From assembly GCF_011045215.1 (NCBI RefSeq), contig NZ_CP049201.1: DNA of 64,000 nucleotides. One strand, 5' to 3'. This document shows, one piece after another, positions 643 to 61,450 of the stretch. Numbering within the stretch: position 1 is the first letter of the stretch; the number at the start of each line of letters is the position of its first letter. This DNA comes from Escherichia coli. Its GTDB lineage: Bacteria; Pseudomonadota; Gammaproteobacteria; Enterobacterales; Enterobacteriaceae. Both the position numbers and the translations under genes were made by a program. The notes below the pieces were generated by a model. The model was not told the origin of the DNA and made no database searches. It saw only the letters and a list, made by a program, of their open reading frames with translations.

Positions 643-2000
643 TGAAAAGATTATCTATAACCGTCCGTTTAACCTTGCTTTTTATATTGCTGCTGTCTGT
701 TGCTGGCGCTGGAATTGTCTGGACTCTCTATAATGGCCTGGCAAGTGAGTTGAAATGGCGCGATGATACAACACTCATTAACCGGACAGCACAGATCAAG
801 CAGTTGTTAATTGATGGGGTAAATCCAGATACGTTACCTGTATACTTTAACCGGATGATGGATGTTAGTCAGGATATCTTGATCATTCATGGTGATGGCA
901 TCAATAAAATTGTTAACCGGACAAATGTCAGTGATGACATGTTAAATAACATACCTGCTAGTGAGACAATCAGCGCAGCTGGCATTTACAGAAGCATTAT
1001 TAATGATACTGAGATTGATGCTTTACGAATTAATATTGATGAAGTTTCGCCATCATTAACGGTTACTGTGGCTAAATTGGCTTCAGCCAGACATAACATG
1101 CTTGAACAGTATAAAATTAATAGCATTATAATTTGCATTGTCGCCATTGTACTTTGCTCAGTATTAAGTCCGCTGTTAATCAGAACGGGATTACGAGAGA
1201 TCAAAAAGTTGAGTGGTGTAACGGAAGCGCTGAATTATAACGATAGCCGGGAGCCTGTTGAGGTTAGCGCATTACCGAGAGAACTAAAACCTCTTGGGCA
1301 GGCGTTGAATAAAATGCATCATGCTTTAGTCAAAGATTTTGAGCGTCTAAGTCAATTTGCTGACGATCTCGCTCATGAACTTAGAACGCCCATTAATGCA
1401 TTACTGGGTCAGAATCAGGTTACGCTCAGTCAAACCAGAAGTATCGCTGAATATCAAAAAACAATTGCCGGTAACATTGAAGAGCTGGAAAATATTTCGC
1501 GGTTAACAGAGAACATACTGTTTCTTGCCCGGGCAGATAAAAACAATGTTTTGGTGAAACTGGACTCGCTTTCTCTCAATAAGGAAGTCGAAAATTTGTT
1601 GGATTATCTTGAATACCTTTCAGACGAGAAAGAGATTTGCTTTAAGGTCGAGTGCAATCAGCAAATCTTTGCGGATAAAATTTTACTGCAACGAATGTTA
1701 TCGAATCTTATTGTTAATGCCATTAGATATTCACCAGAAAAATCGCGTATTCATATAACCAGTTTTCTTGATACCAACGGCTATCTTAATATTGATGTCG
1801 CCAGTCCTGGAACGAAAATTCATGAGCCTGAAAAACTCTTCCGTAGATTTTGGCGGGGAGATAATTCGCGTCATTCCGTAGGTCAGGGACTTGGTCTTTC
1901 TTTAGTCAAAGCGATTGCCGAATTACATGGGGGAAGTGCTACGTATCACTATCTCAATAAGCATAATGTGTTCCGGATTATGTTACCGCAAAGAAATTAA
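642..2000 (+). CDS. hprS: Sensor histidine kinase HprS/YedV
   Basis: 452 aa; N-terminal TM segments, H-box HELRTPINAL, HATPase motifs; coupled to upstream regulator. Confidence 0.88.
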   Translation: MKRLSITVRLTLLFILLLSVAGAGIVWTLYNGLASELKWRDDTTLINRTAQIKQLLIDGVNPDTLPVYFNRMMDVSQDILIIHGDGINKIVNRTNVSDDMLNNIPASETISAAGIYRSIINDTEIDALRINIDEVSPSLTVTVAKLASARHNMLEQYKINSIIICIVAIVLCSVLSPLLIRTGLREIKKLSGVTEALNYNDSREPVEVSALPRELKPLGQALNKMHHALVKDFERLSQFADDLAHELRTPINALLGQNQVTLSQTRSIAEYQKTIAGNIEELENISRLTENILFLARADKNNVLVKLDSLSLNKEVENLLDYLEYLSDEKEICFKVECNQQIFADKILLQRMLSNLIVNAIRYSPEKSRIHITSFLDTNGYLNIDVASPGTKIHEPEKLFRRFWRGDNSRHSVGQGLGLSLVKAIAELHGGSATYHYLNKHNVFRIMLPQRN

Positions 2001-2040
2001 CATAGGGCTTCAGTACGCCATAAATCAACCATGAAAAAAC

Positions 2041-2075
2041 GCAGCCACGTCGTGAGTATTAACGTGGCTGCGATT
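2041..2075. terminator. Hairpin between convergent hprS and hchA (gcagccacg...cgtggctgc)
   Basis: Inverted repeat directly after hprS stop in a convergent intergenic region. Confidence 0.5.
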
Positions 2076-2107
2076 GATTATGCGTTTACATTCAAACGTA
2101 ACAGGGA

Positions 2108-2959
2108 TTAATCCGCATAAGCTGCCAGCATTTCCTGCGCCGCCAGTTTACCCAACGCATTCGCTGCGAAAGGACTGTCGCCGGTGAGAACTTTACGGTC
2201 CTTATGTACTCGCCCGGTGATGTCGTCATTAATAATGTTCATGCCCATTTTCTTCAGCTCTTCGCCGAAGTACCAGGTGAGATGACCCGGCATATAGCCT
2301 ATCTCTGGCGTTTGTTTGTCTGCGGCGTCTGGGAATGCGCAAATGGAATAACCATTCAGTGGGTTATCGCCGTGGCGAAGCGCCAGAAAAGCCGCCGGGC
2401 CGTGGCAAAGGGAGATAACAAAACGGTCATTTTTGATTGCCCACTGCAAAGCAGCAGCTACGTCCTGGCTTTCTGGTAAACCAATAAGTGCGCCATGACC
2501 ACCAGGAACAAAGATTGCTGCATATTCGCTATCAGCGTTGAGGCTGGCGACAACATCCGCGAGTTTCTTCGGATTGCGGAACAACGATTTATGCTGCTCA
2601 AAGAATGGCATTACTTTTTCATCTTTGTGCGGCATAGCCCAGTATTCAAACTTGGTCATCAGACCGGAAATGGTCGCCACTTCGAATTCGAAACCTGCAG
2701 CATGGAGATGATACAACGGCAGCAACGTTTCAATCGGATGGTTACCGGTCGAGAACAGTTTTCCGTTATCGGTTGGCAAATAACGTTCGTCCGCGGCGAT
2801 CACCAGAATTTTATGCTTACCGCGATACGGTTTTGGATAGTCCACGCCATCAAGATCAGAGACGGGACTGGTATATTGGCTAAGCGAATATTCTGAAGGG
2901 AAGAATGCATTATCTTCAGCAATATCGACCTGCGGATTTTTACTTGTTTGAACAGTCAT
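2108..2959 (-). CDS. hchA: Hsp31 / glyoxalase III (DJ-1/PfpI family)
   Basis: 283 aa; MTVQTSKNPQVD N-terminus and DJ-1-type catalytic Cys context; conserved position. Confidence 0.93.
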   Translation of the reverse strand: MTVQTSKNPQVDIAEDNAFFPSEYSLSQYTSPVSDLDGVDYPKPYRGKHKILVIAADERYLPTDNGKLFSTGNHPIETLLPLYHLHAAGFEFEVATISGLMTKFEYWAMPHKDEKVMPFFEQHKSLFRNPKKLADVVASLNADSEYAAIFVPGGHGALIGLPESQDVAAALQWAIKNDRFVISLCHGPAAFLALRHGDNPLNGYSICAFPDAADKQTPEIGYMPGHLTWYFGEELKKMGMNIINDDITGRVHKDRKVLTGDSPFAANALGKLAAQEMLAAYAD

Positions 2960-3549
2960 AGTGTATTCCTTATTGTTGCTTAGTTAGGGTAGTCACTATA
3001 TTTGCGACTGAGCTGGTCGCTATTTTTAACCAGTCTGGAAAATTGAGTCAATATATCGAAAGCGGTAGTCGGCGGGTGTAAGTATGTAATGATGATGCTG
3101 CACTGGTGTTGAATATTATTCACGCCAAATTTTCCTTATTGAGCAACGTCGTCGCAAGTGGCCTCAATGATTTTAGACCATTATCAAAGGTACGGGGCGG
3201 CGGGGAGAGATTTAGTGCTGTGAAATATTGTGGTACTGATGAATATTTATATCGCGGATTGGTAGAGAAAAGATTATTTCATGCACTATTTTTGCAAATA
3301 TTTCTATATGGGAAGCGTGTTTGTTACGGATTAATTCATAAAGAAATGCATTTGGGTGTTGGTTTGAAGAGTCGCTGGTTGATGTTATTGTGCCAGGAGG
3401 GGCAGGGTAAGGTGCTGTATCGATATGCATTGGCAATTGCGTGTGCCGCAGATGGAGATGAAATGCCAATAAAAAAGCCTGAATTCGATGAGGGACGAAC
3501 TCAGGCTAGTGTTTAGTTTTACAGTAACACGCCGCAGCACGTTGGCTGA

Positions 3550-4713
3550 TTAGAACTGGTAGACTAAGCCCACACCAACAACGTCATCTGTTGCGATGCC
3601 ATTGTTGTCATAGAAATCGTCATCTTTATCCAACAAGTTTATTTTATAGTCAACATATGTTGAGAAGTTCTTATTGAAATAGTAGGTCGCTCCAATTTCA
3701 ACATAGTTGACCAGATCCTGATCAACATACTCTTGATGACCATTGTTGTTATAGTCGTTACCGCCGAGGTCTTTGCCTTTTGAATAAACATATGCAAGAG
3801 ATGGGCGCAGACCAAAATCGAACTGATACTGTGCTACAGCTTCAACGTTCTGGGTTTTATTTGCGATACCCACATTACCATATGGTGTCATATTGCGGGT
3901 TTCAGCATACATCATTGCAAGATAAACATTGTTGGCGTCGTATTTTGCACCAAATGTCCATGCTTCAGCTGTATCACCACCAGCAAATTTGCTGTATTCA
4001 TTGTAGTGATACCCGCCAAGAGCTACTTGAGAATTGGTACGGTCAGAGTTTGAGTAAGCGGCACCTAAGCTCAAACCGAAGTCAAAGTCATATGAAGTGG
4101 AAAGACCAAAACCATCACCGTTCTGGAAGCGAACGTCTTCGTGACCATTTTTAGTACCTTCTTGATCTTCTCCTGCATTGCTGCCTTCGTTGTTACCTTG
4201 ATACTGCAATGCAAAGTTCAGACCTTCCACCAGACCGAAGAAATCACTATTGCGGTAAGTAGCTACCCCATTTGCACGGCCTGCCATGAAGTTATCAGTC
4301 CAGGTATAGGAGTCGCCGCCGAATACAGGAAGCATATCTGTCCAGGCTTCAACGTCGTAAATCACACCATAGTTACGACCATAGTCAAAGGAGCCCATCT
4401 CGCCGAACTTCAGACCTGCAAAAGCAAGTTTGACATAAGTATTATCAGAACCTTCAGTGTCGCTAGCCTTTGTTTTGGTCAGTGCTTGACCATAACCAGT
4501 TAACTGATCTGTAATTTGGGTCTCACCTTTGAAGCCTAACTCGATGATAGTTTCATCGCCGTCATCGCCAGGGTTATCGGAAAAAGTATGACGAGCATCA
4601 ACTTTTCCGTACAGATCCAGTTTATTGCCATTTTTATTATAAATTTCAGCCGCATTTGCTGCGCCAGCAACTAATAACGCCGGGACCAGCATTGCCAGAA
4701 CTTTTCTTTTCAT
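3550..4713 (-). CDS. OmpC/OmpF-family outer membrane porin (yedS-like), apparently intact
   Basis: Start taken at internal ATG 4713 ([21 protein letters not shown] signal peptide); 387 aa; C-terminal ...VGLVYQF; AT-rich promoter region upstream. Confidence 0.85.
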
Positions 4714-5279
4714 TATGTATTCCCTTGTGATTATAATCTTCATGAATATATCAATAAGTGCCGTTATCCAAAAAAAAAGCACATTTGGATACTATTCTAT
4801 GAAGTTCATTTTATTTTAAAGATTACATGTAACAAATGTATTTAAAAGATTTCAAAATGCTTCTAATCTATTTAATATAATTCAGAATTATGAATTCTAA
4901 ATATAAACATTCATGAAAATTATAAATGTATATCAATATATTATGAGTTGAATGGAAAGATAGGGAGTATCAATGATTGTTGCGCCAAACGGCAGGCGTG
5001 ATCACGCGCACATTAATGAAGGTATAAAAAAAGCCGGCATCATGCCGGCCCAAAAAATATAAACAAGACGATAAAAGGCTAATAACGGGGTTATCATGAC
5101 ACAGAAATCAAAAAAGGTATAATTGTATTCAGTGCTAATATATTGTTTGGGTGAATTAATAAAACTATTACCAAGGATATAAATAAATCTTTATTGCTGT
5201 TTTTCCAGTAATTATTGCCGTTGCGCAAAATTTATCTATTTGTTCAAAAAATGATTGAGTCTCGACTGGCTCATCCAAT

Positions 5280-5645
5280 GTGGAAAAATGTGACTTTTAT
5301 CACATAATAGTACTAAGTCTGAATTTTCCGGGTTATCTCAAAATGGAATACGGTTCGACAAAGATGGAAGAGAGACTCTCTCGCAGCCCTGGCGGCAAAT
5401 TGGCTTTGTGGGCTTTCTATACATGGTGTGGCTATTTCGTCTGGGCAATGGCGCGTTACATCTGGGTGATGAGCCGGATCCCCGATGCCCCCGTGTCGGG
5501 ATTTGAAAGCGATTTAGGCTCTACCGCGGGAAAGTGGTTAGGGGCACTGGTCGGATTTTTATTTATGGCTCTGGTCGGGGCATTGTTAGGCAGCATTGCC
5601 TGGTACACCCGACCTCGTCCCGCACGTAGCAGACGCTATGAATAA
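5280..5645 (+). CDS. yedR: Small inner membrane protein (YedR-like)
   Basis: 121 aa ORF with two hydrophobic segments in the conserved position before yedJ; start codon uncertain. Confidence 0.6.
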   Translation: MEKCDFYHIIVLSLNFPGYLKMEYGSTKMEERLSRSPGGKLALWAFYTWCGYFVWAMARYIWVMSRIPDAPVSGFESDLGSTAGKWLGALVGFLFMALVGALLGSIAWYTRPRPARSRRYE

Positions 5646-28236: not shown

Positions 28237-29363
28237 AAGTATTTTATGAAGGAGCAACAGCATCGATTTTTATTTTGGAAAATAAATACGGCATACTCAA
28301 CCTATTGGAGCCTGAACAATCCGGTGACTTCTGCGCTAATCGGGGACGTTTATAAGCACATATAATTGATACTATCTTCCTCCATCACAATTTCAGAAAT
28401 GCACGTGTGATTTTTTTGCATCCGGCGTTTGGACTATGTGGAGTTCAAGAGTGGGAAAGTTACAAGAGGTTGAGGGGATAATTAAAGGGATGCTTATGAC
28501 ATTAGATATCCGGATAGGTACGGATATCGTTGTTATTAAATCTAGTTTATACGTTAAGATGCAGCTACAGCAGAAATTGCCACTGTTAATTTTTTCATCG
28601 TGAGCCCTTTTATTTTAACTATTATTTAAAAATGATGTCACTGCACTACAAATATTCATCCAATCAATGAGATTATTTCAAGATGTAAGTTTTAGTTTCT
28701 CATTTAAATTGTGAAGTAGATCCCTATCTTTATCTGAACTGTTTCTATTGCACACAATGCATGACTATTTTGTGAACGAATATAAATTTGGTAGTTAAAT
28801 TATATTAAAGGTTGTTATTTATGATTGACTCATGATTTATTTATTTAATTTAAATAGCCTAGAAATAACCATGGAAATTATTTGCATGATGTTTGTTTAG
28901 ATTTATTAATGTAATTGAGGTGGTTTTATTTAATACGCAATATAGCGCCGCTTGATATTAGTTCTATTTTTTTTGCGTAAGATAGATGAGACAAACTGAG
29001 ACGCATAATGGTTTGCAAGGCTCTAATACTTTGATGTTGAGGATGTGATGGGGCATGTACGGGGCATAGTACAATGATGTCCATGCTGGTGTAGATAATC
29101 TCCAGGCTTATCCGGTGCGCCGTAAAACCCCGTCCTTCAGGGCAGGGATATAAGGCGCGGTTTTCCACCTAACCAGGTGTTTGCTGTTGTTCAATGTATT
29201 GGCGCACCTCCGCAGCTACTGGCAAAATAGCCAGCACTCCACAAAACGCCTTTGTAGTAATACCTGACTGCAATATCTGGTCGATCTCGTCGCAGTAACC
29301 TACCCGATACGCCTTTGAGGCTGTTTACCAGACTGGATATCGCCAGTTTGGGAGGATAGTTAA

Positions 29364-51654: not shown

Positions 51655-53077
51655 GTGAGAGGAGATTATCAATTGAAGATGGCAAAAAATAACAATGATA
51701 AAATGCGGGCAAAGTATAGGCCGTTCATAAATATATGGGAACATCTTCCTTCTGAGTTCAATGAACTCATCAAGACGTTAATGGTGCTGATACGGCAAGG
51801 GGAAAATGTGGGAGCTCAGCAAAGGGAGCTTGATTCCATCGAAAACTTCAAACACCTGTTAAGTGGATGGAAGCGGGCGCAAAGGATCATAGCTGATGAA
51901 CTCATTATCAGGCTTTCTCAAATCAAGGATCTGGAGTTAGAAAAGAATTGTGCCCATTCAAAAAAGGACTATGAAACAAAGAAGAAGTGTATACGCAATA
52001 TTGAAAGGACTAGACTAGAAATTAGGATTTTACGTAGGTGCATTGATTCAATTGTATGGGCGATATTCCGCAATGAACACTCGTCTATAAGACGTTTACC
52101 TATAAATAGAAATACTGACAATCTGACAATATTTAATATACATGATTCAATGGTGGTAGCAGATGAAATCAATGCTGATCCGATGGCTATAGCTGTTATC
52201 ACTGATATTACTACGTTTGTACATACTGGTGATTTACTTGCGTTAATACCTCAGCAAGGCATAACTTTAATTGAAATAAAAAGTGGTAAGAAAAATATAG
52301 AGTTTTCAAAGGCGGCTATGTTCTCAGTGCAAAGTAAATGTCTTCATTTTGATGAGATTTATAGAAAAGACCTTGATAAAAATGACTTGAAACACTATGA
52401 CAGAGCTAAGCGTCAACTTAAAAGAGCTCAAAATGTGATAGATGTCATTGAGACTGGTAAGGGATTTGATAACTTTTTTCAGTCTCAAGTAACAATTCAT
52501 GACAGAGATTTTTGTCCCGATTTTTATACAGATAAGATTATTGAGCTTTGGTATGAGATATATAACGGTAAAACTTGGGCGATTACTGACATTAATGATT
52601 GTTTATTCCTTGGGGCATATATTAATTCTAATATGGGTTTTTGCGGTTTTAATGGATGGATGGAGGTATCTAGAATATCGGGGAGAGTGGTTTAATATTC
52701 TTGATAGCTTTTCAGATGCTTTATCACGTCCATTTTTTAGTTTGAACCTACCTGATAAATTGCTTCTGGATATCATTAATGGCAATCTAATTGTTGTGCT
52801 GTGTTTCGATCATCGTCGTTTCGTAGAAAGAGCAAATAAAAAATACCCCGGGATTTATGAGTTATTGGATTTTCCATCTCCGAAGATTAATCCTATGAGT
52901 ATGCTTTCCATCAATGGGAAGGGGGTAGTTTCTAGTGTTGATGGACAGAGTGTTTTTATTGGAAATGGTTACGAAACTCGGATTATTTTTGATCAGCAAT
53001 ATCCAGATAGTCTGATTAAGTGGTCATACCATATGAGTGATCTCAAAAAAATATTGATAAAAAAAAGCGTAAAATGA
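51655..53077 (+). pseudogene. AT-rich prophage cargo gene of unknown family, apparently frameshifted (~470 aa if merged); PD-(D/E)xK-like motif
   Basis: ORFs 51655..52695 (frame 1) and 52499..53077 (frame 2) overlap; both have protein-like sequence outside the overlap; frame switch needed near the G-run at 52678-52690; motif VITDI...TGDLLAL...LIEIKSGKK. Confidence 0.55.
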
Positions 53078-60211: not shown

Positions 60212-61450
60212 TTATAAAGAATTGCTACTTTCTAATTCTGGGTTTCTGGATCTATTTTTACAACCTAAATCCGAGTGGTAATTCGGTATATCGTTTGTCA
60301 AATCTTGTTTGATAGCATTAATTAAGATCATTATGTCGAATTTATGCATATCGTCGCCCCCTTCAGACCTTAGATGTTCGGATGTGGTGAGTTGAGTCGC
60401 TAATTTGCTGTTTGGCCCCCACACAATATTGTTTTCGAATTTTCCTTCATGCATTCTGTTATTATATATACAGTATTGTCTAATGTTTAATCCACTGGCT
60501 AAATGTACAATAGCAGTATCTACAGTTATAACAAAATCAGCATGGCGAACCAATGCAAATGAACATCCGGCATCAGAAAATGGAGATAGAGACACATTAT
60601 CCAATCCATTGTGATTAATCTGTTCTCCCATATTAAAAACTATTGTGTGATATCCCTTAAGGTTATTAAGGTAAGCTAGTACTTTGTTTATCTGTTCATC
60701 AGATAATGTTCTGCTATTCTGAGAACCATAAGGGTTAAATATAACTAATTTTTTGTTTTTCTTCCTGAATTCATTTGCAACAATATTTGCTGGTTCATAT
60801 ATTTTGTTGTCAAAATTAAGCGCTGCAGCATAATTATTATTTTTTATCTTTAGTAAAGATAAAACTTTTTTCATTCTTTCAGATGTGTGAATGGAACGAT
60901 TATCGATTATATTTGTATCAAAAATAGTTACGGCAGGATGATTAAAACAGATAGAGTGTTTAGGTCTAAGTAAATGTAGTGTTTGCAATCTGGTTATCGC
61001 TGTGTTATCAAAATTTGAGAAGTCAACAACAAGATCTACATTCAGTTTTTTTATCTTTGCTTTTAGTTCGTTAAATTTATTTTTCTCGTAAGATATAAAG
61101 GCATCCACGCCAACAATATCAGTAAAGAGGAATGATACTCTTGAAGGTGCTATCACATATACCACCATACCGGATTTTTGAAGTTGTTTAATAAACCCTG
61201 AGGTAACGATGCCGTCACCAATGGCTTGCATGTGCATGAAAATGCACACTGTTTTATAACTATCCGGCTGTAATGATGTTTTCCTTCTGTATCGCATTTT
61301 TAGAAATGCCAGTCTGGCCTTCGTCTTTATCTTTTTTGTTTTAATATTTCGCTCTCTGTTAAGCTGTTTTAATGATGAAATAACATTCATAATGGTACCC
61401 TGAAAATCCAAATCACACATGTCATCCGAAATGAGCAGGATACTATACAA
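60212..61450 (-). CDS. Glycosyltransferase family 9 (ADP-heptose:LPS heptosyltransferase-like) cargo gene, AT-rich
   Basis: 412 aa; GT9-like N-terminal motif CIFMHMQAIGDGIVTSGFIKQL and C-terminal HADFVITVDTAIVHLASGLNIRQYCIY; sits between tail-fibre-assembly G and tail genes (Z/fun position); start may be internal. Confidence 0.7.
   Translation of the reverse strand: MYSILLISDDMCDLDFQGTIMNVISSLKQLNRERNIKTKKIKTKARLAFLKMRYRRKTSLQPDSYKTVCIFMHMQAIGDGIVTSGFIKQLQKSGMVVYVIAPSRVSFLFTDIVGVDAFISYEKNKFNELKAKIKKLNVDLVVDFSNFDNTAITRLQTLHLLRPKHSICFNHPAVTIFDTNIIDNRSIHTSERMKKVLSLLKIKNNNYAAALNFDNKIYEPANIVANEFRKKNKKLVIFNPYGSQNSRTLSDEQINKVLAYLNNLKGYHTIVFNMGEQINHNGLDNVSLSPFSDAGCSFALVRHADFVITVDTAIVHLASGLNIRQYCIYNNRMHEGKFENNIVWGPNSKLATQLTTSEHLRSEGGDDMHKFDIMILINAIKQDLTNDIPNYHSDLGCKNRSRNPELESSNSL

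Follow-up and report, generated by a model that had tools for sequence, protein, structure and literature searches.

In Escherichia coli K-12 the porin gene yedS (b4496, formerly b1964-b1966) has long been annotated as a pseudogene. The stretch of E. coli DNA analysed here (contig NZ_CP049201.1 of RefSeq assembly GCF_011045215.1; 64,000 nucleotides, in the following called the window) carries an open porin gene at the same chromosomal site. Is this gene simply an undamaged yedS, or is it another porin, and how did it get there and how might it be controlled? The answer that we consider likely is that it encodes an intact yedS-locus porin which is linked to the small RNA (sRNA) gene rseX and probably silenced by H-NS, and whose allele is rare, was imported and departs from the canonical constriction. 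The intactness of the gene, its family and locus, the presence of rseX, the allele structure, the lineage and the changes of pore-lining residues were established in this work.

The porin gene was found as a single uninterrupted open reading frame on the minus strand (3550..4782, six-frame list), in which a GTG start upstream would give a protein of 410 amino acids. An in-frame ATG at 4713 gives 387 amino acids and is preceded at 8 nt by AAGGGA, a Shine–Dalgarno arrangement and spacing as in ompF and ompC. The following features belong to the gene:

3550..4713, minus strand: porin coding sequence, 'type I' allele of the yedS locus, 387 amino acids plus stop (open reading frame list, annotation of strain KL53, family matches)
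4651..4713, minus strand: signal peptide of 21 amino acids, cleavage before AEIYNK (aligned with the OmpC, OmpF and OmpN precursors)
3476..3507, minus strand: terminator-like hairpin with a 12-bp stem and a T-run, 43 nt past the porin stop (consensus scan only; putative function)

The protein ends with VGLVYQF and thus with a C-terminal Phe. Internal stops and frameshifts, for which the open reading frame was inspected, were absent, and the identical 1164-bp coding sequence is annotated in the RefSeq entry of strain KL53 (WP_000824375.1), whose locus is 99.9% identical to the window. The product name given to this protein by the Prokaryotic Genome Annotation Pipeline (PGAP) is 'porin OmpC'. 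The Pfam family Porin_1 (PF00267) matched with 451.7 bits (cutoff 23.7) over profile positions 1-337 of 337. The NCBIfam 'porin OmpC' subfamily model scored 518 bits (cutoff 484); the equivalog cutoffs of PhoE and OmpF were not reached. In a search of the PDB, the enterobacterial porin structures all aligned across the full mature length, with OmpK37 (6V78) at the top (509 bits, E=6e-152) compared with about 409-425 bits for structures of OmpC and OmpK36. The mature chains in the PDB begin at residue 22 of the query. The signal peptide shares 86% identity with that of OmpC over its 21 residues and is identical among all E. coli alleles at the yedS locus. An AlphaFold2 model, computed from a 28-sequence alignment, contained 16 strands at a mean predicted local distance difference test score (pLDDT) of 75. 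By its full-length Porin_1 match, Sec signal peptide, 16 strands and C-terminal Phe the protein belongs to the general porins, and the gene is an intact member of the OmpC/OmpF family. The initial annotation had described a complete 387-residue porin with signal peptide and C-terminal Phe, and the open reading frame, Porin_1, the PDB matches and the AlphaFold2 model agree on this. This intact yedS-locus porin is very probably functional.

The gene order around the porin gene (hprR, hprS, hchA, porin, drpB (yedR), yedJ, dcm, vsr, yedA) is that of K-12, and in the annotation of MG1655 drpB is followed here by rseX and then by the yedS pseudogene. Annotation and alignment therefore agree with the earlier placement of the gene between hchA and yedR, where K-12 holds its pseudogene; encoded between rseX-drpB and hchA, the window protein is a YedS by position. 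A K-12-derived RefSeq record flags yedS as 'frameshifted; internal stop'. Aligned to the intact allele of strain TW10690 (393 amino acids), the K-12 gene proved to be interrupted twice, by a stop at about codon 162 and by the loss of 1 nt at about nt 657. The O157:H7 gene has an independent 1-nt deletion near nt 600.

For a survey of alleles, the locus was compared by megablast with 5,426 complete E. coli genomes, and matches covering 80% or more of the variable part were counted. K-12-like loci showed only about 81% identity, and many loci aligned across just 47% of the query. The alleles fall into the following types (percentages before the genome counts are identities to the window protein, those after the counts belong to the genome matches of each type):

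Type I: this window and KL53; 387 amino acids; 100%; 367 of 5,426 genomes, all 379 matches at least 99% identical
Type II: TW10690, pseudogenes of K-12 and O157; 393 amino acids; 72%; 1,657 genomes, 83-100% identity
Type IIIa: GPEC1201 / HCM-27C-1; 357 / 371 amino acids; 64% / 62%; 1,529 genomes
Type IIIb: Nissle, TUM2820; 352 amino acids; 59%; 1,141 genomes

Type I is thus a rare allele, present in about 7% of E. coli genomes. In representative genomes the proteins encoded between rseX/drpB and hchA were 59-72% identical to the window protein, a range similar to that of OmpC, OmpF, PhoE and OmpN among themselves (63-69%). It is likely, as part of the explanation given above, that the yedS site of E. 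coli holds at least three anciently diverged porin lineages. The difference between alleles is confined to one segment, as seen in a 100-bp identity profile against seven loci:

3553..4600 (limits approximate), minus strand: divergence island covering the mature-porin segment, from about codon 38 to the stop

Within this island the nucleotide identity to other E. coli alleles was 50-82%, compared with 95-100% in the signal-peptide end, the upstream region and the 3' flank. At the protein level the external loops varied most between alleles (23-46% identity), and the barrel (60-78%) and loop L3 (61-82%) varied less. Type II was carried by five loci of other Escherichia genomes, namely E. albertii, E. 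whittamii, Escherichia sp. E1V33, Escherichia sp. MOD1-EC7003 and a record that bears the title E. coli strain E69. A Nissle-type porin was present in one more record, with the title E. coli (SCPM-O-B-8794). The cross-genus survey, anchored on YedJ in genome contigs, comprised 22 loci, with Salmonella, Citrobacter and Enterobacter not among them.

Where does the type I allele come from? A protein search covering 5.8 billion proteins returned E. coli copies at 99% identity and then nothing full-length above 82%; the exception below the E. coli copies was a 357-residue fragment (P0068) with 97% identity over 81% of the query. The next matches (76-82%) were porins of the Enterobacter cloacae complex, Trabulsiella, Pseudocitrobacter, Lelliottia and Huaxiibacter. 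In RefSeq, the window protein belongs to a cluster of 1,297 sequences. The Enterobacter porin genes adjoin yedJ-dcm-vsr-yedA and hence occupy the same chromosomal position on that side. In a neighbour-joining tree of 336 alignment columns, from which the shared first 37 residues had been left out, the window protein was nested in an Enterobacter-group clade (bootstrap 97), within a subclade with E. kobei, Pseudocitrobacter and the locus L018 of GCA_031981745.1 (bootstrap 94). Type II grouped with OmpN, and type III formed a separate deep branch. Synonymous divergence (dS) between the window allele and every other lineage was saturated, its nearest relatives included; for type II of E. coli (TW10690) against E. 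albertii, dS was 0.48 and the ratio of nonsynonymous to synonymous divergence (dN/dS) 0.06. Where computable, dN/dS was low (about 0.04-0.27); most comparisons were not computable on account of saturated dS, which is informative on age and not on selection.

The simplest reading of these sequence relationships is that type II would be the resident Escherichia lineage and that type I would go back to one fairly recent event, in which a foreign segment for the mature porin was imported through homologous replacement between the conserved coding ends. The uniformity of type I (at least 99%) fits a single recent import. Because even the nearest relative sampled differs by about 18%, the sequences compared do not include the actual donor. 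An ancient trans-species polymorphism is the alternative for the origin of type I.

The type I segment also differs in the lining of the pore. In the canonical constriction of OmpF, the basic residues K16, R42, R82 and R132 face the acidic residues D113 and E117 of loop L3, the latter within the motif PEFGG. Mapped through an alignment to OmpF numbering, the window porin keeps K16, D113, D121 and R132. Glu58 replaces R42, Val130 replaces E117 (PVFGG instead of PEFGG), Ala77/Leu78 replace W61/E62, Lys95 replaces R82 and Phe196 replaces R168. The protein is therefore an eyelet variant within the porin fold. The whole Enterobacter-group clade has V130 and lacks Arg at position 58, and the set Glu58, Leu78 and Lys95 marks the subclade that holds the window allele. 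All other E. coli yedS-locus alleles and OmpC, OmpF, PhoE and OmpN keep the canonical residues. Going by these substitutions, the transverse field should be weaker and the selectivity for charged solutes, including beta-lactams, altered.

Upstream of the porin gene, the initial annotation had described about 500 bp of very AT-rich DNA. The GC content of 4783-5280 was indeed 29.3%, compared with 49.2% for the whole window, and this stretch belongs to the lowest 0.5% of all 498-bp intervals. As a side observation, three more AT-rich islands with 498-bp intervals below 33% GC were seen (~28325-29139, ~52042-52773 and ~60359-61311), with a minimum of 27.7% near 28477. The AT-rich region upstream of the porin gene is more than a porin promoter: it holds rseX with its terminator, the control region of drpB and CRP-type sites. 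rseX had been overlooked; it lies directly upstream of the porin gene on the same strand, and only about 312 bp (4714-5025) separate its terminator from the porin ATG. The features of the region are:

5026-5115, minus strand: rseX sRNA gene (Rfam RF01401, 97.8 bits against a gathering threshold of 50, model positions 1-94 of 94)
5031-5051, minus strand: rseX terminator hairpin (terminator scan)
4714..4900, minus strand: conserved 5' untranslated region and putative promoter region of the porin gene, including the Shine–Dalgarno sequence AAGGGA (cross-allele alignment)
4835-4830 and 4813-4808, minus strand: promoter-like hexamers TTGTTA and TAAAAT (consensus scan; possible promoter)
4997..5012: CRP-type palindrome TGTGC-N6-TCACG between the rseX terminator and the porin gene (read from the sequence)
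5116..5363: divergent rseX/drpB control region, with a perfect CRP-type site and a two-haplotype block (~5150-5216)
5289-5304: the perfect CRP-type site, unchanged compared with K-12

rseX preceded the porin gene in every Escherichia locus checked, regardless of the porin allele. In K-12, the Hfq-dependent sRNA RseX reduces the levels of OmpA and OmpC. K-12 RseX is undetectable in the wild type and is de-repressed, together with its surroundings, in an hns mutant and more so in an hns stpA mutant (PMC8313858). In seven of eight conditions it lies inside H-NS-type extended protein-occupancy domains (bioRxiv 2024.06.20.599902). K-12 and window DNA are 92-99% identical over 4700-5100, and H-NS silencing of the upstream region is supported by these K-12 experiments on near-identical DNA. 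The proposal in the initial annotation that the region is likely H-NS-regulated agrees with its AT-richness and with the de-repression of the rseX region in K-12 hns mutants; for this strain we infer the regulation from them.

The last ~190 bp before the porin ATG were near-invariant in all E. coli allele types, E. albertii and E. whittamii, with more variation further upstream, which argues for a constrained control region. The K-12 counterpart of the site at 4997-5012 (at 2033766, labelled yedS) showed a CRP footprint in vitro, and that of the site at 5289-5304 (labelled yedR) is also in the list of in vitro footprints (PMC12871828). The window site at 4997-5012 differs from K-12 by a single base in one half-site (TCACG versus TCACA). 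By eye, GCATTTTGAAAT... and TTTGTTACATG upstream of the porin gene resemble the OmpR boxes of ompC and ompF, a lead only.

Two further observations concern this intergenic DNA. The block at ~5150-5216, upstream of the rseX promoter, occurs in two haplotypes of about 72% identity: the window, KL53 and TW10690 have one form (HCM-27C-1 is close, 92%) and K-12, O157, Nissle and GPEC1201 the other. The haplotypes are unlinked to the porin type, which suggests separate intergenic recombination events. rseX itself differs from that of K-12 at the 5' end (UUUUUUGAUUUC versus UUUUUAUUAUUUC) and in the loop of the first hairpin (AACCCC versus GCUUCC). The form in the window is shared or closely resembled in TW10690, HCM-27C-1, E. 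albertii and E. whittamii, and the other form is found in K-12, O157, Nissle and GPEC1201, again showing no linkage to the porin allele type.

Is the porin itself a target of the neighbouring sRNA? Pairing was assessed by duplex energies of seed regions against 300 shuffles. Duplex energies over the whole length were underpowered, as even the known pair MicF-ompF reached only z -1.6. With seed regions the positive controls were recovered (MicF-ompF, z -4.9; MicC-ompC, z -4.5; RseX(1-34)-ompC, z -2.0), and none of the seed regions of MicF, MicC and RseX paired above chance with the translation-initiation region of the window porin (5' part of RseX, z +0.7). The lack of RseX pairing with the window porin is compatible with an RseX that lowers OmpC and spares its neighbour porin.

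From these data we propose the following course of events. The type I protein would form a trimeric, 16-stranded general-diffusion channel that is exported with the help of its OmpC-type signal peptide. As an alternative porin it is probably 'quiescent': H-NS, with StpA as a backup, would silence the AT-rich DNA that it shares with rseX during ordinary growth, and the porin would be made only when this silencing is relieved. RseX would be released by the same relief and would lower OmpC and OmpA, so that the module may swap porins and not merely add one. The mature part of the protein would stem from a homologous replacement, with a donor lineage to which, among those sampled, the same-position porins of Enterobacter, Pseudocitrobacter and Trabulsiella are the closest relatives, and the signal-peptide end, 5' untranslated region, rseX and flanks of Escherichia would have been kept. 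Expression, H-NS control in this strain, the logic of a porin swap and the consequences for permeability are what we infer. An effect of the window porin on phage receptors and antibiotic permeability, as had been suggested at the outset, is plausible.

Several points weigh against this proposal. Consensus promoter hits in the upstream region were no commoner than in shuffled sequence (6 against 6.8 expected by chance), so that a promoter was not assigned. MicF showed no above-chance complementarity to the porin start region (z +0.8). Warner et al. are said to have reported a MicF-dependent control of YedS, which the pairing test with the window porin did not reproduce; this dependence may act elsewhere or indirectly. 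Salmonella ompS1 is OmpR-dependent, and control of the window porin by OmpR and LeuO would be an extrapolation from that gene. All 379 type I copies are at least 99% identical, and the intactness of the gene could therefore mean recent arrival and not selection. Finally, the argument about the eyelet depends on an OmpF-numbered alignment and a model of medium confidence (pLDDT 75).

How well do other explanations account for the data? An undamaged vertical ortholog of K-12 yedS, lost in K-12 through two point lesions and otherwise showing ordinary strain variation mostly in the surface loops, would share the position and neighbours, the identical signal peptide and 5' untranslated region and the concentration of variation in the external loops (23-46% identity), all of which we see. 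But the intact K-12-type protein of TW10690 is only 72% identical, and even the barrel strands reach only 78%; against each of the other E. coli alleles dS is saturated, compared with a dS of 0.48 between TW10690 and E. albertii, and the window allele lies inside the Enterobacter-group clade with a bootstrap of 97. Vertical descent is thus very improbable, and orthology in sequence to K-12-type YedS was rejected (72% amino acid identity, saturated dS, other clade). The window gene is YedS by position only, and the view of it as the intact counterpart of K-12 yedS holds for its place on the chromosome but not for its lineage. Even harder to credit is that the gene is OmpC, as its RefSeq name says, or OmpF, PhoE or OmpN at an unusual place. 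The PGAP name and the NCBIfam OmpC score above its cutoff (518 versus 484) speak for OmpC; however, that model is a 'subfamily' and not an equivalog model, the equivalog cutoffs of PhoE and OmpF were missed, and the gene lies at hchA/drpB and not at micF/rcsD. Identity to the K-12 porins was 63% for OmpC, 61% for OmpF, 61% for PhoE and 70% for OmpN, so that the window protein is none of these four porins; identity to a well-characterised porin of another name was a possibility that the initial annotation had left for checking. OmpC proper, an ortholog of b2215, was rejected on its locus, the 63% identity and the match to a subfamily model only. Membership in the OmpN/OmpK37 group was rejected as well (70% identity to OmpN, clustering of OmpN with type II, different locus).

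We also consider it unlikely, if less so than either of these, that the gene is intact but inert, that is a recently imported passenger, permanently silenced by H-NS and drifting towards a pseudogene like the alleles of K-12 and O157. The frameshifts of the K-12 and O157:H7 alleles, the insertion sequences and deletions at the locus in other genomes, the undetectable level of the neighbouring RseX in wild-type K-12 and the near-identity of the type I copies (at least 99%), consistent with too little time for decay, would all agree with this. On the other hand, across Escherichia species the neighbouring intergenic DNA is less conserved than the control region, dN/dS over the long term is low in the lineage, and a functional YedS with a role in carbapenem entry and susceptibility has been reported from a carbapenem-resistant clinical isolate (Warner et al., 2013; PMID 23318808). 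Beyond the proposed H-NS-silenced, imported porin, one may go further and regard the yedS site as a porin 'cassette' locus, at which at least three lineages, with saturated synonymous sites and as far apart as OmpC and OmpF or PhoE, are exchanged by recombination at conserved coding ends under one H-NS-silenced, rseX-linked control region. Type I, with its charge-depleted eyelet, would then have been imported from outside Escherichia, and the polymorphism would be kept by selection through phages, colicins, the immune system or antibiotics. We offer this extension tentatively, as possible rather than probable; if true, strains would differ in their 'emergency' porins.

Some observations concern the surroundings of the gene:

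2108-2959, minus strand: hchA

In some other E. coli genomes the yedS locus carries insertion sequences (IS) or deletions: in TUM2820, ISKpn26 lies between the porin gene and a truncated hchA, and in S1-CAM-01-C an IS3-family element takes the place of rseX and the porin gene. In O157:H7 RIMD 0509939 (locus positions 1207-3324) drpB and the type II porin gene are both annotated as frameshifted, an independent decay of adjacent genes. Between the porin gene and hchA, a plus-strand open reading frame of 136 codons (3106-3516) is listed as 'hypothetical protein' in some RefSeq genomes (WP_001325374.1). It had no Pfam or NCBIfam match; its DNA is 89-99% conserved across E. coli, and the GC skew at 3200-3500 is strongly positive (0.43-0.51). 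The open reading frame is probably not a gene, and we did not count it in the porin system; the conserved spacer here measures 590 bp. Annotated starts of drpB (yedR; 5280-5645, plus strand) disagree, as the open reading frame opens with GTG at 5280 and PGAP records start at 5364. According to the DrpB paper, translation begins mainly at an ATG that is annotated codon 22 (5343 in the window), and the 303-bp coding sequence of MG1655 fits this.

An intact yedS in a non-K-12 strain is by itself ordinary, and the finding in that form is already known: a functional YedS in natural isolates has been published, and the window protein is annotated. The yedS-yedR intergenic region is in use as a host-informative marker. 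With limited access to the literature, we found no description of a multi-lineage allele structure at yedS or of the PVFGG eyelet, and searching publications for allele diversity at this locus or in the vicinity of hchA gave nothing relevant. The pattern of allele replacement together with the altered constriction is modestly interesting. Alternative porins decide on entry into the Gram-negative cell after loss of the major porins OmpC and OmpF, a loss through which resistance to carbapenems and cephalosporins usually arises and a setting in which YedS has been implicated. That strains carry very different proteins, or none, at this locus, and that one of them has a non-standard pore lining, matters for the interpretation of porin-loss resistance genotypes. 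Allele differences and pore lining also bear on phage host range, on vaccines based on outer membrane proteins and on serology.

Among known systems, YedS of E. coli is the nearest by position, with an identical signal peptide, the same 5' untranslated region and flanks and the same family; the mature window protein, in contrast, is about 72% identical to the intact K-12-type protein, falls into another clade, and its eyelet departs from the canonical one. Outside E. coli, the closest relatives are porins encoded at this position in the Enterobacter cloacae complex, Pseudocitrobacter, Trabulsiella and Lelliottia (79-82% identity). These Enterobacter-group porins share PVFGG and the lost equivalent of R42, and are annotated as 'porin OmpC' or 'outer membrane protein N'. 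In the Enterobacter loci L016/L017 and in the locus L018 (GCA_031981745.1) the porin gene lies beside yedJ-dcm-vsr-yedA, as in the window. Unlike the window, the Enterobacter-group loci examined have no drpB or hchA neighbours, and a scan of two of them (L016 and L018) gave no rseX match that reached the Rfam gathering threshold. OmpK37 of Klebsiella pneumoniae (PDB 6V78), a member of the OmpN/OmpS2 group of quiescent porins, and OmpN resemble the window porin in that they gave the best structure match and 70% identity (to OmpN), respectively, and have long loops L4, L5 and L7. However, ompN lies beside micC, OmpK37, OmpN and OmpC keep PEFGG, and OmpN and OmpC keep R42, E62 and R82.

Salmonella ompS1 is a quiescent porin gene that is repressed by H-NS and StpA and de-repressed by LeuO, and it offers a similar picture of an AT-rich, H-NS-silenced porin gene. 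It is linked to yedS by name only: a K-12 gene table lists 'yedS (ompS1)', and one NCBI record names a type II E. coli protein 'outer membrane protein S1'. In a protein search with the type II allele, the best 120 matches were all from Escherichia/Shigella, and Salmonella OmpS1 was not among them. The pairs micF-ompC and micC-ompN, finally, show the same arrangement as rseX and the window porin, that is a porin-repressing Hfq-dependent sRNA that has a porin gene as its neighbour but not as its target. The difference lies in orientation, as micF and micC are divergent from their porin neighbours, whereas rseX is in tandem, upstream of the porin gene and on the same strand.

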